DNA from: an uncultured Pseudomonadota bacterium
Lineage (GTDB): Bacteria; Pseudomonadota; Alphaproteobacteria; RF32; CAG-239
Assembly: GCA_949295025.1 (NCBI GenBank)
Contig: CASFJK010000002.1
Span: forward strand, 21,372 to 85,371
Direction of reading: 5' to 3'
DNA length: 64,000 nt
Shown: positions 515 to 31,118 of the stretch, piece by piece
Position numbering within the stretch: position 1 is the first letter of the stretch
Layout: each line of letters opens with the position of its first letter
Translations under genes and position numbers: made by a program
The notes under the pieces: model-generated
What the model saw: the letters and a program-made list of their open reading frames with translations, nothing else
The model's database searches: none
What the model was told of the DNA's origin: nothing

Positions 515-589
515 TGGCTCCGGCTGCCTGATTCGAACAGGCGACCGATCGGTTAACAGCCGATTGCTCTACCGCTGAGCTAAGCCGGA
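515..589 (-). tRNA. tRNA-Asn (anticodon GUU)
   Basis: Reverse complement reads TCCGGCTTAGCTCAGCGGTAGAGCAATCGGCTGTTAACCGATCGGTCGCCTGTTCGAATCAGGCAGCCGGAGCCA. Cloverleaf with anticodon loop CUGUUAA, G73 discriminator and encoded CCA. Confidence 0.8.
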
Positions 590-613
590 ATAATGCGGTA
601 TTGAATGAAATTT

Positions 614-688
614 TGGAGGCCGGTACCGGAATTGAACCGATGTACAAGGATTTGCAGTCCTCTGCATGAGCCACTCTGCCAACCGGCC
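614..688 (-). tRNA. tRNA-Cys (anticodon GCA)
   Basis: Reverse complement reads GGCCGGTTGGCAGAGTGG...GGACTGCAAATCC...GGTTCAATTCCGGTACCGGCCTCCA. Anticodon loop CUGCAAA, U73 discriminator and encoded CCA. Confidence 0.8.
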
Positions 689-907
689 AATTGATACCTC
701 AACTTTGAGTTCCTCATTCACTCAACGAGAATTATATATACAATCTTTTCACCGATAGTCAATAACTTTTTTAAATTTTTTTTGCTTTTTTTGTGATTAT
801 TTTTTTATTCCTTTAAAAATCAATCTCTTGGTTTTGCACACCACTTATATTTCTTGCATTTATATCCTCAACCTTTATGATTATTTCAGTTTTATAAGGA
901 GAATCAT

Positions 908-1336
908 ATGAAAATTGTTATCGCTTCTGATCATGGTGGTTTTGAACTTAAACAAAACCTCATAGATTATTATAAAAAACAAGGCATTAACCTTGAAGAC
1001 TTAGGCACTCATTCCAGCGAATCTTGCGATTATCCTGATATTGCAGATACTTTAACGGCTGAAATTTTGAGCAAACGCGCCGATTTGGGAATCCTTATTT
1101 GCGGAACAGGAATCGGAATCTCCATCGCAGCAAATCGCCATAAGGGAATCCGTGCCGCACTTCTTTATGATGATTTTACTGCCGAAATGGCTCACAAACA
1201 CAATAATGCAAATGTTCTTGTTTTTGGCGGTCGTACGATGAAAACTGAAGATGTTATCAGAAGAATCGATATTTTCTTAAATTCTGCATACGAGGGTGGT
1301 CGTCATCAGAATCGTCTTGATAAACTTGATGCATAG
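908..1336 (+). CDS. rpiB: Ribose-5-phosphate isomerase B
   Basis: 142 aa, RpiB/LacAB-family sequence (ASDHGG...ICGTGIGISIAANR). RBS aaggag lies 7 nt upstream. Confidence 0.9.
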   Translation: MKIVIASDHGGFELKQNLIDYYKKQGINLEDLGTHSSESCDYPDIADTLTAEILSKRADLGILICGTGIGISIAANRHKGIRAALLYDDFTAEMAHKHNNANVLVFGGRTMKTEDVIRRIDIFLNSAYEGGRHQNRLDKLDA

Positions 1337-1345
1337 GAGGCTTCT

Positions 1346-2608
1346 ATGGATTTTGAAAAAAAATTGTCTGCAGAAGATTCTGAAATTTTTGATGCCATTC
1401 AAAACGAACTCAAACGCCAACAAGAGCAAATTGAGCTGATTGCTTCTGAAAATATTGTTTCTAAAGCGGTTTTAGAGGCACAAGGTTCCATTCTTACCAA
1501 TAAATATGCTGAAGGTTATTCTGCTAAACGTTATTATGGTGGATGTGAATTTATTGATGTGGTAGAAAACTTGGCTATAGAACGCGCTAAAAAGCTTTTC
1601 AATGCCCAATTTGTCAATGTGCAACCTCACTCGGGTTCACAAGCCAATACAGCCGTCTATGTTGCTCTGCTTCAGCCGAACGATACCATTATGGGAATGT
1701 CTTTGGATGCTGGCGGACATTTGACGCACGGTGCAAAGGTTTCTTTCTCCGGAAAATGGCTCAATGCTGTAGCTTATGGCGTTACCAAAGATACTGGCTT
1801 GATTGACTATGACCAAGTGGAGCGTTTGGCAATTGAAAATAAACCCAAACTTATTATCGCCGGTGGTTCGGCTTATCCTCGTCAAGTTGATTTTGCTCGT
1901 TTTCGTGAAATTTGCAATCGGGTAGGGGCTTATTTAATGGTTGACATGGCACACTTTGCCGGCTTGGTTGCCGGTGGCGTGCATCCAAATCCGTTAGAAT
2001 ATGCCGATGTTGTTACGACCACCACGCACAAAACACTTCGCGGTCCCCGTGGCGGTATGATTTTAACCAATAATCCGGATATTGCTAAAAAAATTGATTC
2101 AGCTATTTTCCCCGGAACTCAAGGCGGACCTCTTATGCACGTGATTGCGGCTAAAGCAGTCTGCTTCAAAGAAGATTTGAGCGATGAATTCAAAGCCTAT
2201 GCAGCACAGGTGATTAAAAATGCTAAAGCACTTGGTAAACGCTTGCAAGAACGCGGTCTTGATTTGGTGTCGGGCGGAACAGATACACACCTGATTTTGG
2301 TTGATTTGCGTCCAAAAAAACTGACCGGAAAAGTTGTGGCTCTAGCTTTGGAAAGAGCGCATATGACTTGCAACAAGAATGCTATTCCTTTTGACCCTGA
2401 AAAACCGACAGTAACTTCTGGAATCCGTCTTGGTTCTCCGGCAGCAACAACCCGAGGTTTTAAAGAAAAAGAATTTATTCAAGTGGCAGATTGGATTGCC
2501 GATGTGATGGATTCTCTTGTTAACGGAACTTCAGAAATTGTTATTCCGCAAATACGAGAAAAAGTGATTGCACTTTGTAATCAATTCCCAATTTATAAAG
2601 ATTTGTAA
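1346..2608 (+). CDS. glyA: Serine hydroxymethyltransferase
   Basis: 420 aa with typical SHMT motifs ([24 protein letters not shown]). Confidence 0.95.
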
Positions 2609-2611
2609 AAG

Positions 2612-2652
2612 CAAAAAAAAGTCTGTAACTTTATTGGTTACAGACTTTTTTA
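2612..2652. terminator. Bidirectional rho-independent terminator (glyA / downstream lipoprotein gene)
   Basis: Hairpin gtctgtaac-tttattg-gttacagac is followed by TTTTTT and preceded by an A-run. Confidence 0.7.
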
Positions 2653-2664
2653 GATGAATTTAGT

Positions 2665-3333
2665 TTACTTTATCAGTTTTTTTACTTGCGCTAAGCTCGG
2701 TGCTTTAGCTTCCTTACCATCTTTGTCAAAAGAGGTGATTTTTACACGGCTCCAGTTGATAATTTTACCTTTATCGTTAAGCATAGGTAATTTTGCGTTT
2801 TTGCTGTTCAGAGCAATATAATTACCTTTGTCAATCAGCAATATTTCATTGCTAATTGGGATAAGTAATTTTCCTGTTTGTGTATAAACGCCGAACTTTC
2901 CGTTTTCTTTAACCAGAAGATTTTGGTTCTCATCAAGTCCGTAATTTTCAAAAATGCCGGATACTTTCCCATTTTCTTTAGCAAAGAAGAATGTAGATTT
3001 GTTGCCTTCTTTCGTTTCAAAACATTTCATGTTTTTGTTATACGAAATTGGGGTCGAACTTTGCAGAGAGACTTTGTTTTCCGGGGTTAGAAGCAAGCAT
3101 TTGTCATCTAACTGAGCGATAAACAATCCTTGTTCATAGTCTATCTTACTATAAACATTAGGGGTAACAGCAACTCCGTTAGCTTTTTTGATGCCGACTT
3201 TTCCTGGAACATCACTTTTGCTATACAGAACATATTCACCTGTTGCACCAAGAGGAGTTTGTGTTTCTTTCGGACCGCAACCAACCAAGCATAAAACTGT
3301 GGCAATTAAAGCCAAAAAACTAAAATTTTTCAT
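2665..3333 (-). CDS. Lipoprotein with WG-like repeats (hypothetical)
   Basis: Signal peptide plus lipobox (LVGC). Repeated G-K-x-G-(V/I)...hydrophobic modules resemble WG-containing repeats. Confidence 0.55.
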   Translation of the reverse strand: MKNFSFLALIATVLCLVGCGPKETQTPLGATGEYVLYSKSDVPGKVGIKKANGVAVTPNVYSKIDYEQGLFIAQLDDKCLLLTPENKVSLQSSTPISYNKNMKCFETKEGNKSTFFFAKENGKVSGIFENYGLDENQNLLVKENGKFGVYTQTGKLLIPISNEILLIDKGNYIALNSKNAKLPMLNDKGKIINWSRVKITSFDKDGKEAKAPSLAQVKKLIK

Positions 3334-3421
3334 AATAGTACAAATTTTAAAAATTAAACATAAAGTTACTTAAGACACTTAAGTAACTAGCATTTAAATT
3401 GAATTTAATCAAGATGATTTG

Positions 3422-4222
3422 CTATTTGCGTTTTTGCTCGTTGCTCAATTGAGATATCAAATTTTCTTTGAAATTGTTTGGTTTGCTACGGAAAAGTTGT
3501 AAAGTCTGGTTTATTTGCATATCAGTCATTTCAATATCATGTCTGATATCAGGTTTGTTCGCATCAAAAATATATTTAGGGTTGTTGACCAAGCAATATC
3601 TCTGATAAGGGCTTAGACTGATTTCTGTTTCTTTTACCTTTTTGTTTTGTAAATAAAAACTTTGACATGAAGCTTGAAAGTTTGAGCCTATTTTCTTGAA
3701 ATTCTTCAAAATTTTGGCTTTGATTTGTTTGAACTCGTCCATATCATAAATATAATAAAATTTATTTTTTTGTATGCTTTTAGCATTTCTAATGAGCTGA
3801 TATATTTCCGGAATGTTTTTAATCTGCTTTGGGTTAACAATGCAAAAAGATGTAATATCATCGGCATACAGAGCTAAAGCCGTCTTTTCAAAGTCAGCAT
3901 ATTTTAAATTGCAAAGTAACGGATTTATTTGCAATAAGGGAAACTTCCTATAGTTTTTTATTGGGGTGATGATGCCGATTTGATGTGGTCGGAACAAAAT
4001 TTCAGGTGTTTCATCTTTTGAAAAGAAAGGTGAAAGTTTGCTCCTTAAATCTTGATATTCTGCAACAAAATTAATTTTCTTGGTTTTAGGTGCCTGCTTT
4101 ATTTTGGCGATACGAGCTTTAAGGCTTTGCTTTTTATTAAGGTGCAGCTTTTCATTATCGTTAAGCATACTTAACGAAGCTTCAATCACACTTATTTCAA
4201 AGGCAACATTTTGTTCAGACAT
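3422..4222 (-). CDS. Hypothetical protein (AT-rich, lineage-specific)
   Basis: Long ORF. The likely start is MSEQNV... because RBS GAGGA lies 6 nt upstream; the ORF track extends it to 4261. No recognisable domain. Confidence 0.5.
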   Translation of the reverse strand: MSEQNVAFEISVIEASLSMLNDNEKLHLNKKQSLKARIAKIKQAPKTKKINFVAEYQDLRSKLSPFFSKDETPEILFRPHQIGIITPIKNYRKFPLLQINPLLCNLKYADFEKTALALYADDITSFCIVNPKQIKNIPEIYQLIRNAKSIQKNKFYYIYDMDEFKQIKAKILKNFKKIGSNFQASCQSFYLQNKKVKETEISLSPYQRYCLVNNPKYIFDANKPDIRHDIEMTDMQINQTLQLFRSKPNNFKENLISQLSNEQKRK

Positions 4223-4344
4223 TTTTTTCCTCAATTCAAGAAAGATGAGAATAATAAGCAAAAAGTTAATTTTGATTTAAAAAAGTAGTTAAAAATTAAC
4301 AAATTTTGCTTATACTTTATCATTATTTATGACAGAGGAAAAAA

Positions 4345-5667
4345 ATGATAAAATTAAATACTAAAAAAATTGCCGAGATTGTTTGTTCGGCATCTAACGT
4401 TGTGGATGTGGATATTGAAAATATTTCTACCGATAGCCGCCACATTGTTAAAGGTGATTTGTTTATTGCCATTAAAGGTGAAAAATTTGACGGACACGAC
4501 TTTGTGCCTGATGTTTTGGCCAAAGGTGCCGCAGCTGTTGTTGTAAGCAAATTGTTTAAAGAAATTCCTGCTGTGCGCCAGATTGTTGTGTCCGATACTC
4601 TGGAAGCATATGGTAAAATCGGGGCTTATGTTCGTTCTCGATTCAAAGGTACGGTTATCGGTTTGACGGGAAGTGCCGGCAAAACCACCACCAAAGAAGA
4701 ACTCAAGTTTATCTTGTCAAAATTTGCACCGGTTTATGCGACCAGCGGTAATTTTAATAACTTTGTTGGCGTACCATACACTCTTTGCAATATGGATTTG
4801 AATGCTAAATATGCCATTATTGAAATGGGTATGAGTGCTAAAGGTGAAATTGCCAAGATGGTCAACTGGGTTAAGCCCGATATGGCGATTGTGACCAATG
4901 TTTATCCGATGCATATTGAGTTCTTTCCAAATTTTGAAGGTGTTGCCGAAGCTAAAGCCGAAATTTTTCAGGGTTTGAAAAAAGGTGGTACGGCATTTAT
5001 CAATGAAGATACCAATTTTGCCGATATTTTAGAAAAACGCGCTTCGGAACGTGGCGCCAAAGTGATTGAGTTTGGTAAAGATAATCACCCAGATGTGGCT
5101 TTTGAAACAGCTACTGAAGGGGAGCATTATCTCTACAATGCTTGGTGCGTTTTAAGCGTGGCTAAAGAATTGGGCTTGGATGTTGAAAAAGCCGCCTCAT
5201 ATATCAAAGATTTTGGTGCATTGGATGGTCGTGGCAAACAATGGAAACTCAAATTTGCCAAAGGAACTTACACCCTGATTGACGATAGTTATTCCGGTCA
5301 GCCTGAAGCGATGAAGCTCGCTTTGCAATCTTTAGCCAAAATGAAAACTGAAGGTCGCAAAATTGCTGTTCTTGGAAAAATGGCCGAACTTGGCGATACT
5401 TCTAAATCTCAACATATTGAAATCGGCAAGGTTGCAGCGCAATCTCATTTAGACGTGGTTATCGGCGTTTGTCCGGAAATGAAAGATATGCTTGCAGAAC
5501 TTCCGCCTACGGTTGAACAACATTATTTTGAAAATAAAGATGGTTTGGATGAATTTTTGTTAAATAAGTGCTTGCAAAATAATGATACTGTCCTTATAAA
5601 AGGAGCAAGATATTCTTCCGAATTGTATAAAGTTACCGAAGCTCTGATAAAACAGGGTAGGAGTTAA
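4345..5667 (+). CDS. murF: UDP-N-acetylmuramoyl-tripeptide--D-alanyl-D-alanine ligase
   Basis: 440 aa with the Mur ligase P-loop [13 protein letters not shown] and MurF-like N- and C-terminal domains. Confidence 0.85.
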
Positions 5668-5671
5668 GAGC

Positions 5672-6160
5672 ATGAAATGTCCGTTTTGCGGTTGTGATGA
5701 TACGCAGGTTAAAGATTCTCGTAATGCCGATGATAATACCGCCATTCGCCGTCGTCGTGAATGTCCGGAATGCGGCTCAAGGTTTACAACCTTTGAACGT
5801 ATTCAGCTTAGAGAATTGACCGTTGTCAAAAAAAATGGTGAAAAAACACCCTTTGACAGAGACAAGCTTGCTCGCTCCATTCAGATTGCGGTTAGAAAAC
5901 GTCCGGTTACACCCGAACGTGTGGAAAAAATTGTGAACTCTATTCAACGTCGTTTGGAAACGACAGGAGAAGCAGAGATTCCGTCTACTACAATCGGACA
6001 ATATGTGATGGATGCGCTTTCTAATCTTGACCATATTGCTTATATCCGCTTTGCTTCGGTGTATAAAGATTTTCGTGAAGTGAAAGATTTTGAAGATTTT
6101 GTTGAAACTATTGATCAGTTTGCCAAGCCCAAACATCAAAATGAAGGAGATGATGAATAA
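5672..6160 (+). CDS. nrdR: Transcriptional repressor NrdR
   Basis: MKCPFCG...[13 protein letters not shown] zinc ribbon followed by an ATP-cone. 162 aa. Confidence 0.9.
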
Positions 6161-6642
6161 TGGCTAAATTTATTTCTGAAAAAATTAAAATGAAATCCGG
6201 TGCTCGTTTGGCCGCCGTGCAAGCTACTTATATGATTGAATATGGTCAACTGCCCGTAGATGAAGTGATTAAAGACTTTGTTAACGGCGAAGTCGGTCGC
6301 TATGTGATTGAAGATGAGGGCAACGATCGTGAAGAATTGGTTGAAGTCGGCGCTATGGATACGGCTTATTTTACCGAGTTGACCAAAGGTGTGCATACAC
6401 ACAAAGAAGAAATTGAAAAATCTTTGGCTCATTATCTCAAAGAAGGTTGGTCTTTTGAGCGTTTTGACGGCACATTGCGTGCTTTGCTCCTTTGTGCTAC
6501 CTATGAACTTGCTCACACGCAAGATGTTGATGCCAATGTGCTGATTAAAGAATATGTTGATTTGGCTTATGCATTCTTCACTAAAAATGAACCCAAAATG
6601 GTGAATGCTTTGTTGGATCATATAGCAAAAGAAATACGCTAA
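6160..6642 (+). CDS. nusB: Transcription antitermination factor NusB
   Basis: 160 aa, NusB-like (ARLAAVQATY...). Start overlaps the nrdR stop (TAATG). Confidence 0.85.
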   Translation: MAKFISEKIKMKSGARLAAVQATYMIEYGQLPVDEVIKDFVNGEVGRYVIEDEGNDREELVEVGAMDTAYFTELTKGVHTHKEEIEKSLAHYLKEGWSFERFDGTLRALLLCATYELAHTQDVDANVLIKEYVDLAYAFFTKNEPKMVNALLDHIAKEIR

Positions 6643-6738
6643 AAATGCTAAAAATGCAGTAAACGGGAAGCTAGAGCAATTTGGCAGAGAGAAAATGAAA
6701 ATTGTTTGGGCTACCGTTAACTCAATAAAAGGAAAAAA

Positions 6739-7257
6739 ATGTCTGTTTTGAAATTATATGAATATCCGCATCCGATTTTGAAGAAAAAAGCGCAGAAGGT
6801 CGAAAAAGTTGATGATGATATGCGCAAGTTTTTGGATGATATGTTAGAAACCATGTATGCCGATGCCGGTGTGGGTTTGGCTGCGCCGCAAGTTGGTGTG
6901 TCTAAACGTGTGGTTGTGATTGATATTGCCCATGATGATGAAGAACCCAATCCATATTACATGGTTAATCCCGAAATTATTTGGAAATCGGAAGAAAAAG
7001 TTTGCGGAGAAGAGGGATGCTTATCTGTCCCCGACCAACGTGCGGAAGTAGAGCGCTTTGCTGCCGTTAAAGTGAAATATCTAGACTATAACGGCAAAGA
7101 GCAAGAACTCTTGGCGGAAGGCTTTTTAGCCATTGCTGTTCAGCATGAGTTGGACCATTTAGATGGGATTCTTTATATTGACCGAATCAGTCGATTGAAG
7201 CGGCAAATGCTTCTTAAAAAGCTTGAAAAAATGCGTAAAGAAAAAGCTCATCAATAA
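6739..7257 (+). CDS. def: Peptide deformylase
   Basis: Motifs GVGLAAPQVG, EGCLSVP and HELDHLDG. 172 aa. Confidence 0.9.
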   Translation: MSVLKLYEYPHPILKKKAQKVEKVDDDMRKFLDDMLETMYADAGVGLAAPQVGVSKRVVVIDIAHDDEEPNPYYMVNPEIIWKSEEKVCGEEGCLSVPDQRAEVERFAAVKVKYLDYNGKEQELLAEGFLAIAVQHELDHLDGILYIDRISRLKRQMLLKKLEKMRKEKAHQ

Positions 7258-7602
7258 GATGGGTTTTTTTATATATAAAAAAACCCAAAATGGACAAAAA
7301 GATTCTTCTTGCGTGAGGGGCTGATTTGTGGTATTCTAAATTTTGCTAAAATAAATTCTGTTAATTATTATCTTCTGCATTGTATGTAAGAAAATGATTC
7401 GTATTGAAAAGATGATTTGAAAAAATTTGAGAGTTGCAAAGCTAGCAACCTCCCAACGAGCGAAGTATAGTACCTCAGGGACCAAAAAACAAATTTGTCA
7501 AACATTTTGAGTAGAACGAAAGCCATTTTCCCAGGGATGATGCAGGTTTTTAACATAAACTCCGACTGAGATTCGAAAGAAGGTAACGTTAGGAGTTACA
7601 CT

Positions 7603-8568
7603 ATGGCTAATATTACCATAGCTTTTTCTAAGGATATTGAAACAGTTAAGTCTTTGGTGGCTCAGGGATACTGCCCCGTTGAATGCTCCTTCGGGGGTGT
7701 TTCAGTGGTTGATTCTCTTGAGTTGGATCACCACGGGTCAAAGTCTCATTTAGAGTCCGTAGCGATACGGGCTTATAGAGATTTCTTCGGCGTTAGAGCC
7801 GAGGATCCAAGGTTTGTTATAAACCACGTGGATGCGGACAGCATTTTCGCTGTTGCAGCGTTGGCTGGTTTGTTGCCTCATCCAGAGGCTGCCAAAAATA
7901 TGCCGGTCTTCTTGCAAAAGACATGGGGGCAAGATCTTATGCCTTTGGCAGAGACTATTGCAATTATGGACACCGACCCGATTGGTCGTGACATCATTGC
8001 AATGCCAAGGGGATCAATCCTCGCGGCATGGAATTCGCTTTTCGGTGCTAATGCCAACGACGAGCTTGCTGCGTACTGTGCTGTCGAAGGCTTCCGTCGT
8101 CTTTTGACACAGCCGTCCGCTCAGGTATTCGTTGCCGCCGCTGAAAATGCAGAGAACCAACGTCGCGAAGCCGCACTTGCAGATTTGCGCGAACGCGGCG
8201 AAAAGGTAGGCAACGTGATGACCATTCTTGGCAGCCGCGTGTTCGGATTTGCTGAATGGTATGGTCGCAACGTTGAGGCAGGTGCTCCGACAGAGGCAGC
8301 TGGTTGGGATAACCCAATCGTTGTTAGCCTCGTTGAGGCAACAAATGCCTTGACTTTCGGTGCACCGAACAAGGCGGTTGCTGAAGAGCTGCTGGGAGTC
8401 GGTGGCTTCATGAACGTCTTTAAGGCGCTCAACGAAGCCTATGGCTTGGCAGACGGTGCAGGTTTCGGTGGTCGTGAGACTATCGGTGGATCGCCTCGCG
8501 GTCAAAAAATGACCGAAGCTGACCTTGCCAAAGCGGTTTCTGTAATCAACCAACTGATGAAGAAATAA
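7603..8568 (+). CDS. Hypothetical protein encoded by a GC-rich (foreign-looking) ORF
   Basis: 321-aa ORF with a strong RBS (aggag, 7 nt upstream). Its GC content is visibly well above the flanks, which creates several overlapping antisense ORFs. No confidently recognisable domain. The His/Asp motifs LDHHGS and HVDADS could hint at a metal-dependent hydrolase. Confidence 0.6.
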   Translation: MANITIAFSKDIETVKSLVAQGYCPVECSFGGVSVVDSLELDHHGSKSHLESVAIRAYRDFFGVRAEDPRFVINHVDADSIFAVAALAGLLPHPEAAKNMPVFLQKTWGQDLMPLAETIAIMDTDPIGRDIIAMPRGSILAAWNSLFGANANDELAAYCAVEGFRRLLTQPSAQVFVAAAENAENQRREAALADLRERGEKVGNVMTILGSRVFGFAEWYGRNVEAGAPTEAAGWDNPIVVSLVEATNALTFGAPNKAVAEELLGVGGFMNVFKALNEAYGLADGAGFGGRETIGGSPRGQKMTEADLAKAVSVINQLMKK

Positions 8569-8587
8569 TCTTCTTTCATCAGTTGGA

Positions 8588-8620
8588 AAGAGAGGTGTTT
8601 TTGCACCTCTCTTTTTTTAT
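8588..8620 (+). terminator. Rho-independent terminator after the GC-rich ORF
   Basis: Hairpin agagaggtg-ttttt-gcacctctct followed by TTTTTTT. Confidence 0.75.
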
Positions 8621-8622
8621 GT

Positions 8623-9561
8623 TTATTTTTCGTACTTGCCTTTTTGCAATTTGGCAAAATATAATGGTGATAGTTGGAACGGTTCTTTGTAGCTTCCGTC
8701 TTTTAGGCTTGTAATCAGTTCTTTTGTGATGCCTTCTTTTTGCAACTCCCTTTGTCTTTCTCTGATGATATTTTCTGCTTCAGTTATGGTACTTTCAACT
8801 GCTTTAGGCAACTGTGTCGAATTTTTTATCAGAGGCAAAACATTAGTGGTTTCATAAACTTTTCTATCCGGATTATAAATTGTAAAAGTAAACATGTCTT
8901 TCATATATTTCAGATAAGTTTTATCACTTGCATCAATGTTTAAAACTGGTTTTAAGTAGGCATCAGCTAAAGTGATGGTTTCTAATTTGCTTTTGCCGTT
9001 AATTTTTTTCATATAACTCGGAGATGCTTTTTCATTCCATGCATTGATAGATTCATTGGCAATAGAACCAACATCGGTCAAAACCACTCTTCGTTGTTTG
9101 GGTGATAAGTTTTTTATTTTGTTTTTGAGCCAATAATAACGATCAGTAAATACGCTTAAATCTTCTTCTTTTAAAAAATAGTTGGCGCAAAGCGTGAAAA
9201 TTTCTTGTATATAGGCAGCTTTTTCATTGTTTTCATTGTAACAATAGCTTTGTTTGGGAGTGAGTTCTTTATAGTCTTTTTCTTCAGCTAATTTACACTT
9301 ATACAAATAGCATTGTGCATGCTTCATTTCATGGCTGGTAATATAGAGCTTATCATTTTTGTTTAAGTAGTCAGAAATTAGACTACTTAAAAAGAAAATT
9401 ATCTTTCTGTCTTTAGGGGTATATTTTGTTTTACTGAGGGTATCTTTAAATTCTTGCGGAAGCATAAAAACTTTATCAATTATGTGAACAACGTTTAAGT
9501 TGTGATGTCCGACCTCATTGGCAATATTAATTTTATCGTGATTTTGATTGTAACAGACCAC
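8623..9561 (-). CDS. Hypothetical protein containing an HExxH motif
   Basis: 312 aa, AT-rich and N/K-rich. Contains SHEMKHAQ (HExxH) with downstream Glu residues. No other recognisable domain. Confidence 0.45.
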   Translation of the reverse strand: MVCYNQNHDKINIANEVGHHNLNVVHIIDKVFMLPQEFKDTLSKTKYTPKDRKIIFFLSSLISDYLNKNDKLYITSHEMKHAQCYLYKCKLAEEKDYKELTPKQSYCYNENNEKAAYIQEIFTLCANYFLKEEDLSVFTDRYYWLKNKIKNLSPKQRRVVLTDVGSIANESINAWNEKASPSYMKKINGKSKLETITLADAYLKPVLNIDASDKTYLKYMKDMFTFTIYNPDRKVYETTNVLPLIKNSTQLPKAVESTITEAENIIRERQRELQKEGITKELITSLKDGSYKEPFQLSPLYFAKLQKGKYEK

Positions 9562-9659
9562 TTCTTGTGTTTGTTCATCAAATTCGGGATAATAAAAACT
9601 AACAATTCGTTTAATAGGGGTGTTTTGTTTGTTAAACGGTGGGGGTAAATCTTTTTGTT

Positions 9660-9977
9660 CTAATTTATATTTGCAAAACCAAGCATAATGGTTAGTTTTT
9701 TTTCCAGTTCGGACATATCTTCTTTAAGGTTTTGCATATCGGAAATTTGGTTGAAATATTTTTGCTGAATGCGACCGTGTGGAAGTTCATTTTGCAACAT
9801 ATCCGTTAATCTGAAATCGGCTTTGGGAAATTGTTTTGAAAATTCTTCATAGTCATAATCATTGTAGCTTTTGTTGAACTTGTTTTGCTTATATTTTATC
9901 AACTCATCATCACTCAAAGTTACATCATCTTTGAATGCCAGAAAAAAGCCTGCGTTTGTTTTTAATACTTTGACCAT
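9660..9977 (-). CDS. Hypothetical small protein
   Basis: Likely start is MVKVLKTN..., which has an RBS-like aaggga upstream. The ORF track extends it to 10010. Confidence 0.4.
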   Translation of the reverse strand: MVKVLKTNAGFFLAFKDDVTLSDDELIKYKQNKFNKSYNDYDYEEFSKQFPKADFRLTDMLQNELPHGRIQQKYFNQISDMQNLKEDMSELEKKLTIMLGFANIN

Positions 9978-10099
9978 CTTTATGTCCCTTTTATAGACAC
10001 ATGATAGCAAATTTTTGTGTTAAATTAAAGTTTAATTTTGCTTGCTTATTTATATAAATTTTTTACAATAAAGCAAATTTATGAAGGAGATTGAAGATT

Positions 10100-22436: not shown

Positions 22437-22762
22437 TTGTTATAGAAAAGGGCCGTTCTGTTGCTGGGTGGCCCATACCCCACTTTCAACTATCCAGAGT
22501 TAAAAGAATTTGAATTTGTTGCGACTACAAATTAAGCAGCCATTGCAACAGGAGCTACGTTATTATCGTTAGCATTCATTTAGTTTGAACCGATAACGGT
22601 GGTATCTCACCGGGTACGACATACATATCTTTACTGTTCCCAATCAAGCCTGTTTCACCCCCAAAGTTTGTAAGCTTAATTTGGTGGAGGTGCCGGGTAC
22701 CGCCCCCGGGTCTTGAAAACCTATTTCATACAGCCTCTAGTACCATAGCTGAAAAACTCAGC
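22437..22762 (-). ncRNA. ssrA: tmRNA (ssrA), permuted two-piece type
   Basis: The minus strand encodes the tag reading frame GCT AAC GAT AAT AAC GTA GCT CCT GTT GCA ATG GCT GCT TAA, giving ANDNNVAPVAMAA*. The upstream acceptor piece ends ...CACCUCC-ACCA at 22682. After a short loop, the coding piece begins GGGGGUG at 22662, giving an acceptor stem with a G3:U70 pair (Ala identity). A sigma70-like promoter TTGCAA-17-TATATT lies at 22770-22798 on the minus strand. Confidence 0.65.
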
Positions 22763-22769
22763 AAGTCAT

Positions 22770-22798
22770 AATATAGGTGATATTTGGCTACTTTGCAA
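22770..22798 (-). promoter_or_regulatory. Putative sigma70 promoter of ssrA
   Basis: The minus strand reads TTGCAA, then a 17-nt spacer, then TATATT, about 7 nt before the predicted acceptor-piece 5' end. Confidence 0.4.
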
Positions 22799-23752
22799 GC
22801 CTTATCTTTCTTGACAAAACAATATTTAATGATATATTTTTTAACAATTAATTTATTATTCATTTTAAATATTATAATTATGGAAAGAGAAAAAATGATT
22901 GACAGTCTTGGCAACCAAGAACAGGTTCTTTTTTGGTTTGCCAGTAAGTATGATATCAAGCATGTTTCCAAATTGCTGGCTGACGGTTATACTTTGACAA
23001 TAGATGTGCTGGAAGTGCTGTATTTTCTGGGTTATTCTTCTGAACAGATTCTGGATTGTATTAAATCTTGCAAATATTATATTGATGCTAAACTTTTGTT
23101 TGATTGGTTATGCGGCTTTATTGGGCAAGAAAAAACAGAGGCATTTATTATCGCAGAATTTGAATATGATCCTGATTTGTTTCAATATTTTTCATTAGAA
23201 AGTTTGGAAAAGCATAAATGTTGGGATGAATTGGCTTGTCGTAAAGCTGATGACATTTTGTTTAAGCACGGGGTTTATGATAAAATGACGCCGGAAGGTT
23301 TGTATAAACACCAATTGTTTGATGAATATTTTAAGAAGTATGGACATATTAATCCTGAGGATAATGCTGCACTTGATTATTTGGCAGAAAAAGGCTTGTG
23401 GAATATTGTTCAAGCAAACTACAATATACTTAGAAATACGACCAATCAAAAGCTGCTTGATTTTTTGGTGAAGCATAAAAAGTTTGAAATGATTGCCACA
23501 CAAAATGTGATGTATTTGACCAAATTTCCTGAAGGAATTGAGTATTTACAGAAAAATAAACGCTATTATGTTCTGGCGGAAGCCAAACTTTGGGATAAAA
23601 TCGATTGGGACGAGTATTTGCAATCGGGAACAATCAAACCGATGAGAGATGCAGAAACCGCTCAGCAATGGGATGCATTGATGCGTGGTCACCGACATCT
23701 GGTGCTTTTAAAGCATTTCAAGCTTTGGCGTTTTGTTAAATCTTTTTTCTAA
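22784..23752 (+). CDS. Hypothetical protein (AT-rich, lineage-specific)
   Basis: 322-aa ORF. An alternative start MEREKMIDS lies at 22880. No recognised domain. Confidence 0.45.
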   Translation: MATLQALSFLTKQYLMIYFLTINLLFILNIIIMEREKMIDSLGNQEQVLFWFASKYDIKHVSKLLADGYTLTIDVLEVLYFLGYSSEQILDCIKSCKYYIDAKLLFDWLCGFIGQEKTEAFIIAEFEYDPDLFQYFSLESLEKHKCWDELACRKADDILFKHGVYDKMTPEGLYKHQLFDEYFKKYGHINPEDNAALDYLAEKGLWNIVQANYNILRNTTNQKLLDFLVKHKKFEMIATQNVMYLTKFPEGIEYLQKNKRYYVLAEAKLWDKIDWDEYLQSGTIKPMRDAETAQQWDALMRGHRHLVLLKHFKLWRFVKSFF

Positions 23753-28481: not shown

Positions 28482-31118
28482 TTAAATCGCTTTTTTAATG
28501 GCATCAATTGCTGCAGCGGTTTTGCTACCATCCGGACCACCTGCTTGAGCCATATCCGGACGTCCGCCACCACCTTGACCGCCAACTTGTGCAGATCCTA
28601 AGCGAACCAAATCAACAGCTGAATATTTTCCGACCAAATCATTGGTTACACCAACAACGATAGAGGCCTTACCCTCGTTGTTAGCTGCCAAAACAATTAC
28701 ACCGGAACCAATATTGCCTTTGATTTCATCAACAAAAGCTTTCAATTCTTTAGCTTGAACATCTTGCAAGTCTTTACCAACGAATTTAATGCCATTGATT
28801 TCTTCAAACTCGTTATTGTTGCCACTGGCTTTATTGCTTACAAGAGCTTTCTTCAAGTTGAAGATTTCGGCTTCTTGTTTTTTCTTTTCTTCTTGAAGTT
28901 GAGTAATCTTACCTTCAATGTTTGCCATATCAGATTTGAGCATAGCGGCAATATGGTGCAAGCGTTGCTCATTTTCCAAAGCATATTGTTCGGCACCGCG
29001 ACCGGTCAAGCATTCAACACGGCGCAAACCTGCACCGATTGCTGATTCGGCAATGATTTTGAAGAAGCCGATATCACCAGTGGATTTAACGTGTGTACCA
29101 CCGCAAAGCTCTGTTGAAAGAAAATGCTCGTTATCATTATCACAAACAGAAACAACACGAACTTCATCACCGTATTTTTCACCGAACAAAGCCATAGCGC
29201 CTTCTTTGATAGCATCTTCTTGACGCATGATGCGGGTGATGACAGGGTGGTTTTCTCTGATGATGTCATTTACTCTTTCTTCAGCCAAACGAAGCTCAGC
29301 ATCAGAAATTTGTTTATGGTGAGAAATATCAAAACGCATTCTGTCGGCAGCGACATAAGAACCTTTTTGAGTAACGTGTGTACCCAAAATGTCACGCAAT
29401 ACTTTGTGTAAGATATGGGTCACAGTGTGGTTTGCAGCAATGGCAGCACGATTTTTTGTATCAACTTCAAAAGTCAAATCATCACCGACTTTAACCGTAC
29501 CTTTAATCATTTTGCAAACGTGAACAGTGAGCTCGTGAAGTTTTTTCTTAGTATCCAAAACTTCAATTTCGCAATTTGGGCCATAGATTTTACCAATATC
29601 ACCAACTTGACCTCCCATTTCGCCATAGAACGGAGTTTGGTTGGCAACGAGGTAAAATTCGCCATTATTTACGGTTTCAACTTCTTTACCATCAACAACC
29701 AAGTTGTTTACCAAGCATTCTGATTTTAAGGTGTTGTAACCCAAAAATTCGGTACCGCCGTTTTTATCAAAAATTTCGAACCAAACTTTTTCTGTTCCGG
29801 CATCACCAGAACCGGCCCAGTTCTTACGAGCTTCGGCTTTTTGTTTAGCCATGGCTTCATCAAAACCTTTGACATCAACTTTCATGTCTTTGTTTCTCAA
29901 AGCATCTTGAGTTAAGTCAAGCGGGAAGCCATAGGTATCATAAAGTTTGAATGCGGTTGTACCAGATAATTCATCACCGGCTTTCAAATCTTTGGTCTCA
30001 TCTTCCAATAAACGCATACCTTTATCTAAGGTTTTTAAGAAGCGCAATTCTTCAGCCTTGATGGTCTCGGTAATGAGTTCTTGAGCGCGATACAATTCAG
30101 GATAAGCTTCGCCCATTTCTTTTTGCAAAGCAGGCAAGAGTTTATACATCATCGGTTCTTTCATGCCGAGCAAATATTGGTGACGCATTGCTCTTCTCAT
30201 AATACGGCGCAAAACATAACCACGACCTTCGTTTGAAGGCATAACACCATCAGCAATCAAGAAGCAGGTTGAACGCAAGTGGTCAGCAATGACGTTGTGA
30301 GATGCTTTCAAAGGACCGTTCGGATCAGAGTTTGCCATATCAGCAATGGCTTTGATTAAGTTTTGGAATAAGTCAATCTCATAGTTGGAGTGAACGCCTT
30401 GTAAAATGGCTGAGATACGTTCCAAACCCATACCGGTATCAATTGACGGGTGTTTCAACGGAATACGAGAGCCATCCGGCAAGTCTTCAAATTGGTCAAA
30501 TACCAAGTTCCAGATTTCAATCCATCTATCACCGTCTTCTTCAGGTGTTCCCGGCAGGCCGCCCCAAACTTCCGGACCGTGGTCATAGAAGATTTCAGAG
30601 CAGGGGCCGCAAGGACCGGTGTCACCCATTTGCCAAAAGTTATCTTTGGTGGCAATACGGATGATTCTGTCTTCAGGCAAACCTGAAACTTTTTTCCAAA
30701 TATCGTGAGCTTCATCATCGGTATGGTAAACGGTAACAGCCAATCTGTCTTTAGGTAAGCAGAATTCTTTGGTTACCAATTCCCAAGCCCAAGCAATAGC
30801 TTCATCTTTAAAATAATCTCCGAAAGAGAAGTTGCCGAGCATTTCAAAAAATGTGTGGTGACGAACGGTGTATCCGACGTTGTCCAAGTCATTGTGTTTA
30901 CCGCCGGCACGAACTGATTTTTGGGAAGTGGTCGCTCGCTTGTAATCTCTGACTTCATTACCGGTAAAGATGTTCTTGAACTGAACCATACCGGAGTTGG
31001 TGAACATTAAGGTTGGGTCATTATCCGGCACCAAAGATGATGACGGAATAATCTTGTGACCATTCTTAGCAAAGAAATTTAAATATGTACTTCTAATATC
31101 TTTTAATGTTGTTGTCAT
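28482..31118 (-). CDS. alaS: Alanine--tRNA ligase
   Basis: 878 aa with class II AlaRS motifs, the editing domain HxxxH/CxxxH, and a C-terminal DHHA1-like GGGG region. Confidence 0.95.

Follow-up and report, generated by a model that had tools for sequence, protein, structure and literature searches.

Enzymes of the DHH/DHHA1 superfamily function in the turnover of nanoRNA, in signalling by cyclic dinucleotides, in DNA repair and, as has emerged recently, in CRISPR (short palindromic repeats, clustered and regularly interspaced) signalling by SAM-AMP, a conjugate of S-adenosylmethionine (SAM) and AMP. A gene whose product appears to form a motif-permuted, sequence-isolated new branch of this superfamily, referred to here as gene X, is found in a 64,000-nucleotide stretch of DNA (the window) from an uncultured alphaproteobacterium (contig CASFJK010000002.1, positions 21,372 to 85,371). 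Confidence in the assignment to this enzyme class is high. Favoured at somewhat better than even confidence is the proposal that gene X encodes a metal-dependent DHH/DHHA1-type phosphodiesterase whose substrate would be a small adenosyl-nucleotide, perhaps SAM-AMP or else MTA-AMP (methylthioadenosine-AMP), and that its expression is under riboswitch-like control.

Two routes for the degradation of SAM-AMP have been described, one through the DHH enzyme NrN and the other through SAM-AMP lyase (PMC10600005). NrN has the canonical order of DHH motifs, with the DHH triad at residues 85-87, and is encoded beside corA in type III-B CRISPR loci (PMC10600005). SAM-AMP lyase possesses a T-loop that holds the catalytic residue E71 and the AMP-stacking residue W64, and the product of the lyase, MTA-AMP, keeps a phosphodiester bond (PMC12255297). 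The substrate loop of DHHA1 domains carries the motif GGGH-x-x-ASG, and the substrates of DHH/DHHA1 enzymes are not predictable from sequence (PMC9757072).

The open reading frame (ORF) of gene X and the protein features discussed below are as follows.

7603-8568, forward strand: ORF of gene X, ATG start, 321 amino acids, unannotated family
7603-8196, forward strand: N-terminal DHH-like domain, residues ~1-198, from conservation, weak Pfam DHH matches and the secondary structure of the predicted model, which sets the domain limits
7681-7683 (E27), 7726-7734 (D42-H43-H44), 7831-7839 (D77xD79) and 7969-7971 (D123), forward strand: near-invariant N-terminal residues in family alignments, together with H93
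8197-8565, forward strand: C-terminal DHHA1-like domain, residues ~199-321
8461-8502, forward strand: near-invariant Gly-rich loop, G287-x-G-G-R-E-x-x-G-G-S-P-R-G300

The gene X family is real, conserved, isolated in sequence and uncharacterised. A search of 5.8 billion clusters recovered 287 full-length homologs, down to ~40% identity, none of which has a Pfam domain and for which the source names gave only "hypothetical protein". When 1.84 billion representatives were scanned exhaustively with HMMER, 202 clusters matched. The family is spread patchily over phyla. A profile built from its most divergent members gave 228 matches, and among the best 120 of these there was no Pfam-annotated protein and no bridge to annotated DHH proteins. 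The protein from the window matched nothing significantly in scans of Pfam, NCBIfam, PHROGs and PADLOC, and sequence and profile searches against PDB sequences gave no real match. Comparison with syntenic orthologs yields dN/dS values (ratios of nonsynonymous to synonymous divergence) of 0.06-0.13, indicative of purifying selection, and therefore the annotated frame is the coding one and the ORFs that overlap it are by-products of GC-rich DNA. All five overlapping antisense or alternate-frame ORFs named in a first-pass annotation of this DNA are present exactly where it placed them, and a sixth occurs at 7878-8057. Two members of the family, each a single case, have the gene X domain fused to a recognisable partner: P0202 (830 amino acids), in which it is joined to a superfamily 1 (SF1) helicase of the RecD/PIF1 type that carries AAA_30 and UvrD_C_2 domains, and P0244 (397 amino acids), in which the partner is a GGACT gamma-glutamyl cyclotransferase-like domain. 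The fusion partners in P0122, P0123 and P0126 contain no Pfam domain.

The predicted model of the gene X protein has the two-domain DHH plus DHHA1 fold. Its best structural matches include TM1595, NrnA, a Mycobacterium NrnA homolog and PAP phosphatase, and RecJ, RecJ2 and RecJ-Cdc45 are also among the matches. The first-pass annotation had found no recognisable domain in this protein, which holds at the level of sequence, where no profile match is significant, but not at the level of fold, which is of the DHH/DHHA1 type. Even in the most divergent alignment of the family (mean identity 24%), E27, D42, H43, H44, D77, D79, D123 and G289-G290...G295-G296-S297 are near-invariant. The seven acidic and histidine residues in this set equal the canonical DHH count. 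Further conserved residues (C24, P25, E27 and C28) lie in the segment YCPVEC.

D77 and D79 are invariant and form the DxD of motif I. Their identification as canonical motif I is based on two alignments. In the first, 9 of 62 family members have sub-threshold matches to Pfam DHH (PF01368), the best with an E-value of 0.0027, and these matches place residues 71-128 on profile positions 3-50 of 125; the best of three scores seen is 14.5 bits against a gathering cut-off of 28.1. In the second, an hhalign comparison of the family with E. coli RecJ that is not significant (probability 1.3%), only residues 56-81 align, and they do so with the helix, strand and DxD of motif I (GDFDADG). The window protein itself has no match to PF01368 even at E<=10, and PF02272 (DHHA1) has no match at E<=10 in any family member tested. 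The invariant D42-H43-H44 is located 35 residues upstream of motif I, and the canonical order I-II-III-IV is not followed; moreover, the family alignment has no conserved Asp/His motif after D123 in the N-terminal domain. In the Gly-rich loop, Arg and Glu stand in place of the DHHA1 motif His. A canonical DHHA1 domain (PF02272, E 9e-14) is present elsewhere in the window in alanyl-tRNA synthetase (AlaRS; 28482-31118, reverse strand), the C-Ala loop of which resembles GFGGRETIGGSP of gene X by eye only. An hhalign comparison of the divergent gene X alignment with this AlaRS DHHA1 domain was not significant.

From this arrangement of residues it would appear that gene X has a permuted but complete metal site, with E27, D42-H44, D77, D79 and D123 predicted to converge in space. 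The gene X protein is envisaged as a cytoplasmic phosphodiesterase dependent on a divalent metal, in which the N-terminal domain would bind the metal through E27, D42-H43-H44, D77, D79 and D123, the DHH triad would be supplied by the N-terminal segment ahead of motif I, and the GGRE..GGSPRG loop of the C-terminal DHHA1-like domain would bind the phosphate of the substrate. Catalysis, metal dependence and the permutation of the motifs in three dimensions are all predictions made from sequence. The suggestion of the first-pass annotation that the His/Asp clusters LELDHHGS, NHVDADS and IMDTD bind metal fits this arrangement well, since these clusters hold D42-H43-H44, D77/D79 and D123, respectively, which are near-invariant motifs of a DHH-fold phosphoesterase; metal binding is plausible.

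The structural matches also lend themselves to two other assignments. It is possible, if rather unlikely, that gene X encodes a generic NrnA-type nanoRNase or pAp (3'-phosphoadenosine 5'-phosphate) phosphatase with a housekeeping role in the turnover of pAp or RNAs of 2-5 nucleotides, in which case the gene linkage described below would be coincidental. TM1595, NrnA, the Mycobacterium NrnA homolog and PAP phosphatase all point in that direction, as does the position of gene X among housekeeping genes, and assigning substrates to DHH-DHHA1 enzymes is notoriously hard (PMC9757072). Set against this assignment are the lack, in the gene X protein, of the GGGH and the order of motifs that are canonical, as well as the rarity of the family (some 200 clusters out of the 1.84 billion representatives scanned), its patchy distribution and its horizontal acquisition. 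The other assignment, a RecJ-like single-strand nuclease that acts on DNA or RNA ends and possibly works with a helicase, is very unlikely. It would account for the helicase fusion in P0202, for the RecJ, RecJ2 and RecJ-Cdc45 matches, and for a DPPY DNA methyltransferase that neighbours the gene in 11 loci of Myxococcota and Bradymonadia. The fusion, however, is a single one among hundreds of family members, the neighbours in Myxococcota look like lineage synteny, and the protein lacks the oligonucleotide-binding (OB) fold and the extra RecJ domains for binding single-stranded DNA, while its size and two-domain layout fit the stand-alone nanoRNase-like enzymes. An operon composed of gene X with the PlsY, DPPY methyltransferase and STK-FGE kinase neighbours in Myxococcota was considered and rejected, as these too look like lineage synteny.

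Gene X is preceded by a conserved leader, the elements of which are listed here along with the signals that flank it.

7309-7337, forward strand: putative sigma-70 promoter for the unit of leader plus gene X, read from the sequence
7372-7602, forward strand: leader, ~230 nucleotides, conserved and covarying
7374-7546, forward strand: structured, aptamer-like core of the leader, from nhmmer, folds and covariance-model alignment
7560-7595, forward strand: 3' hairpin of the leader, putative translational expression platform, from RNAalifold and the covariance-model structure
7591-7595, forward strand: ribosome-binding site (RBS) AGGAG of gene X, 7 nucleotides ahead of the ATG, read from the sequence

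The gap of 345 nucleotides 5' of gene X is conserved in length, and over its last ~230 nucleotides the closer relatives share 94-98% identity. Searches with nhmmer located the leader 5' of all homologs whose protein identity is 70% or higher, for a total of 21 loci in two chromosomal contexts, the second being a position after ftsI in L021, L030 and L033. Three independent single-sequence folds converge on one architecture. The core consists of a long closing helix, a rod, internal loops in which the blocks UAUGUAAG and CCCAGGGAUG are invariant, and a distal junction that bears the hairpins GUUGC...GCAAC and CCC..GAG-GAAGUAUAGUA-CUC.GGG. In the 3' hairpin, CUCC (7560-7563) pairs with the Shine-Dalgarno (SD) sequence GGAG (7592-7595) around an inner UUC-GAAA-GAA stem-loop. 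Both helices of this hairpin covary: CUCC/GGAG is replaced by CCCC/GGGG in L021 and L033, and UUC/GAA is replaced by UCC/GGA in L019, L021 and L033. The leader has conserved secondary structure with covariation over 7372-7602. When the leaders were aligned to the covariance model, 93% of the cells were paired, versus 33-52% in slid controls, and compensatory changes were found in 37 of 60 pairs, versus 11-14 in the controls; none of 500 shuffles matched the observed values for pairing and covariation. The covariation comes from four or five lineages only, in an alignment that was fitted to the model.

A structured core with an RBS-burying hairpin on its 3' side points to translational control that depends on a ligand or another factor. 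That the leader is a structured cis-regulator can be stated with high confidence from comparative sequence evidence. The leader may act as a riboswitch, or it could equally be a protein-binding autoregulatory element. None of 4227 Rfam families matched 7372-7602 at gathering thresholds, and at E<=10 with permissive filters there were only short, chance-level overlaps (E 2.2-9.6, far below gathering scores) and no riboswitch family. These searches bear on the quite unlikely case that gene X encodes a second-messenger phosphodiesterase comparable to GdpP or PggH, with a cyclic or linear dinucleotide (c-di-AMP, c-di-GMP, pApA or pGpG) as its substrate, and that the leader is the riboswitch for that messenger. 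Such a role would be at home in the superfamily, but even at E<=10 the leader matches no c-di-GMP-I/II, c-di-AMP or cGAMP riboswitch family. Furthermore, the conserved neighbours included no cyclase or other gene for signalling, and the sole recurrent functional neighbour is a homolog of SAM-AMP lyase.

The promoter assigned to this unit has a -35 element TTGCGT (7309-7314), a spacer of 17 nucleotides and an extended -10 element TGgTATTCT (7329-7337). The block TTG...TTGTG.TATT is invariant across an alignment of the upstream regions from five loci, one of them in a different chromosomal context. A promoter scan gave an alternative site at 7343-7371. Transcription is predicted to start near 7344, which would give a 5' untranslated region of ~255 nucleotides. 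Under the proposed mechanism, this leader of ~255 nucleotides would set expression through the core at 7374-7546 and then the RBS-sequestering hairpin. Directly after def, an AT-rich hairpin (GAUGGGUUUUUUUAUAUAUAAAAAAACCCA, 7240-7290) looks like a bidirectional terminator that would insulate def from the unit formed by the leader and gene X.

The lyase homolog suggests a link to SAM-AMP. It resembles SAM-AMP lyase at E~1e-10, with the catalytic Glu conserved, and it adjoins gene X in four related lineages. In L021 and L033 the two genes are convergent, the lyase gene of L033 spanning 7130-7744. Its invariant motif VYHTDW65GC67PxGGE72 aligns with the T-loop of SAM-AMP lyase. The leader core recurs as a divergent second copy that has no SD hairpin, directly 5' of the lyase gene in two loci of one lineage and in these two only, at 9740-9932 in L021 and 7736-7927 in L033 (both on the reverse strand; E 4e-7 to 8e-7). 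Even with filters off, the leader gave no significant match 5' of the lyase-X operons in the L005/L034 and L012 lineages or 5' of the lyase gene in L096-L098. Among 19 metagenome lyase loci there was one weak, probably spurious match only (L115, E 0.007).

A small dinucleotide-like molecule that contains adenosine would be the likeliest class of substrate for gene X, and the enzyme might complete or parallel the reaction of the linked lyase homolog. The specific proposal that the substrate is SAM-AMP or MTA-AMP is tentative. It is based on the linkage to the lyase homolog, on the precedent of a DHH enzyme, NrN, as the alternative route of degradation, and on the phosphodiester bond that is retained in MTA-AMP. 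Several observations weigh against it. The lyase homolog is not in the 64-kb window, and in what is probably the same clade the lyase gene lies elsewhere, without the leader. Viewed from the side of the lyase family, gene X is adjacent in just one further locus, and most gene X homologs beyond the Alphaproteobacteria have no lyase neighbour. No sequence similarity was detected between gene X and NrN, and the SF1 helicase fusion in P0202 points elsewhere. Finally, the window is devoid of CRISPR arrays, and none of its large unassigned ORFs is fit for Cas10 or CorA; its ten largest unassigned ORFs are housekeeping genes.

CRISPR arrays were present in 2 of the 119 sequences collected (L053 and L104), too few to carry weight, and an array lies near gene X in 1 of about 75 gene X loci (L053). 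In that locus, which is from Verrucomicrobia, cas1 and an array of 14 repeats (556-6864) are located ~3 kb upstream of the gene X homolog. In L104 (6001-12515), a lyase homolog lies just 5' of a Cas9 gene and an array of 13 repeats, and the system is of type II, not type III.

Turning to the origin of gene X, the first-pass annotation regarded the gene as compositionally foreign and as a candidate recent horizontal acquisition, possibly derived from a phage or plasmid. The composition is indeed exceptional. The annotation had seen that its GC content is well above that of the flanks. The GC content of gene X is 51.2%, compared with 36.7% for the window, and it is the highest among all sliding windows of 966 nucleotides (z=4.1). 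At the three codon positions the GC fractions are 0.609 (GC1), 0.441 (GC2) and 0.488 (GC3), versus 0.471, 0.333 and 0.316 for the other genes (z=2.3, 2.2 and 3.7, respectively; GC3 of the other genes 0.316±0.046), and gene X ranks first of the 55 window genes at each position. The protein is rich in Ala and Gly, as had been noted; at 24.3%, the sum of the two is the top value among the 55 genes. Amino acid composition was nevertheless rejected as the sole cause of the GC excess because GC3 is itself an outlier (z 3.7) and the excess is gone in GC-rich hosts.

The foreign origin is supported by the GC content of gene X across hosts and by its patchy distribution over phyla. In GC-rich hosts (Myxococcota, Bradymonadia and Planctomycetes) the gene has about the GC content of the host, with a difference of about 0 to +0.03 in Myxococcota and Bradymonadia, and it exceeds the host only where host GC is low, by up to +0.27. 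Because the excess is limited to low-GC hosts, it fits GC-rich donors followed by partial amelioration in the lineage of the window. The closest relatives of the host of gene X are metagenome-assembled genomes (MAGs) of gut "uncultured Alphaproteobacteria". The window also encodes an alphaproteobacterial permuted two-piece transfer-messenger RNA (22446-22802, reverse strand; Rfam RF01849, 207 bits), which marks its low-GC host as an alphaproteobacterium. The comparative sequence evidence supports the view that gene X was acquired long ago from a GC-rich donor by an ancestor of this gut alphaproteobacterial clade. In three contigs with GC contents of 0.40-0.52, namely L051 (unclassified bacterium), L052 (Uhrbacteria MAG) and L085 (Gammaproteobacteria MAG), the gene X homolog has a GC3 of 0.90-0.95; here the transfer may have been truly recent, or the contig may be chimeric or binned wrongly.

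The recent part of the earlier interpretation does not survive comparison with related genomes. In the window, gene X lies among the housekeeping genes def, fmt and glmM, and the order def-X-fmt is common to 9 related genomes, in which the flanking proteins are 59-98% identical and the divergence of gene X broadly scales with that of the flanks, down to 80% for def and 60% for fmt. An occupied slot of this kind, purifying selection and a conserved leader of its own all argue against recent arrival. Nor is the locus a chimera or an assembly artefact, since the identical protein occurs in the same context on 4 independent metagenome contigs and orthologs are present in 9 further genomes. An origin from a phage or plasmid fares no better: tblastn searches found no match among 50,697 phage records or 72,556 plasmid records, and homologs were found in only 2 of 2.9 million viral contigs (IMG/VR). 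Those two contigs, of 133 and 143 kb, are L094 (homolog at 8004-8900) and L095 (8001-8945), and around the homologs lie many ORFans together with genes for an HNH endonuclease, a protein with a DnaJ domain and a UDP-glucose dehydrogenase; the contigs may be jumbo phages. That gene X is recently acquired phage or plasmid cargo is therefore highly improbable. The GC anomaly, the two large viral contigs and a hypervariable cassette immediately 3' of gene X would each suit such cargo, but the synteny, divergence that broadly tracks the flanks, the empty phage and plasmid searches and the lack of any tRNA and of any integrase, transposase or other mobility gene at the locus (the nearest tRNAs are at 515-688) speak against it.

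The 3' side of gene X has the following features.

8585-8624, forward strand: intrinsic terminator of gene X, a 14-bp stem (8585-8616) followed by a T-run, from a terminator scan and the sequence
8623-10010, reverse strand: hypervariable cassette between gene X and fmt, two low-GC orphan ORFs of 312 and 116 amino acids

The RBS and the clean terminator that the first-pass annotation ascribed to gene X are thus both in place. The truly variable element at the locus is the cassette, not gene X. L015, L019, L024, L027 and L028 do not have it, in L023, L025 and L026 identity to it is just 33-61%, and its orphan ORFs have no significant match in Pfam, PHROGs, NCBIfam or PADLOC. Elsewhere in the window, an ORF of 445 amino acids (54049-55386, reverse strand) with a GC content of 29% and a GC3 of 0.22 is an outlier in the direction opposite to gene X, and it has no Pfam match at E<=1e-5.

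Although it is long established at its position, gene X does not evolve in step with its neighbours. The def and fmt genes of the window group with those of L017, L025 and L028 (97-98% identity), yet the gene X proteins of these loci are only 79-86% identical to that of the window, and the closest gene X proteins are in L023, L015 and L024 (89-90%). The synonymous divergence (dS) of gene X is 1.0-1.5, compared with 0.3-0.7 for def, a difference of 2-5x. The leader just 5' of gene X nonetheless stays 94-98% identical among the closer relatives. Evolution that is faster than that of the flanks and incongruent with it suggests allele exchange or accelerated evolution. These features and the dedicated structured leader are atypical of an essential RNA-turnover enzyme, which tells further against the NrnA-type housekeeping role. 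The history proposed for the phosphodiesterase is that an ancestor of the clade would have gained gene X from a GC-rich donor, after which the gene would have been inherited between def and fmt while its alleles diverged or were exchanged unusually fast.

The family defined by gene X escapes the profile libraries altogether; its catalytic motifs are apparently rearranged, and it spreads horizontally into small-genome and host-associated bacteria. It offers two tractable handles on function, the structured leader without an Rfam match and the recurrent linkage to a lyase homolog that keeps its catalytic residues. If the link to the lyase is true, SAM-AMP biology would be wider than the CorA CRISPR loci, and in the leader there would be a candidate for an RNA that senses the molecule in nature. 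If it fails, the leader would still be a well-supported candidate for a new cis-regulatory RNA and gene X would still represent a new DHH subfamily. A bolder and unlikely extension is that the leader is a new riboswitch class for SAM-AMP, MTA-AMP or a related conjugate, and that gene X and the lyase homolog form a CRISPR-independent chromosomal module which detects and destroys an alarm molecule. A module of this type might serve the host as an off-switch or a salvage pathway, or it might guard against signals made at the time of infection. Were it real, no RNA that senses a second messenger of type III CRISPR would have preceded it, and it would provide the first evidence of SAM-AMP-type handling outside CorA CRISPR loci, by a new permuted DHH branch.

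Compared with the stand-alone DHH/DHHA1 enzymes (NrnA, TM1595, PggH, CnpB and the catalytic domain of GdpP; PF01368 plus PF02272), the gene X protein falls below both Pfam thresholds. Its triad (42-44) is N-terminal to motif I (77-79), whereas theirs follows motif II; their GGGH-x-x-ASG corresponds to GGRE-x-x-GGSPRG in gene X, and the YCPVEC residues are extra. RecJ, RecJ-Cdc45 and archaeal RecJ2 differ in another way, as the gene X protein is about half their size and is without the OB-fold and additional domains. The leader is unlike known riboswitches in that it belongs to no Rfam family and has been seen in one alphaproteobacterial subclade only. With translational riboswitches that have an SD-sequestering platform it shares a structured core, invariant unpaired blocks, covarying helices and, apart from the core, a hairpin at the 3' end by which the RBS would be occluded. 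In L021 and L033 alone, a paralogous copy with the same core and a different 3' end stands 5' of a gene that may be functionally related. NrN, the CRISPR SAM-AMP phosphodiesterase of Bacteroides fragilis (PDB 9lq9-9lqb), has no detectable similarity in sequence to gene X, which resides among housekeeping genes in a window where neither CRISPR nor CorA was found. Whereas NrN and the lyase are alternatives in CRISPR loci, the gene X and lyase types of enzyme co-occur in the related genomes described here.

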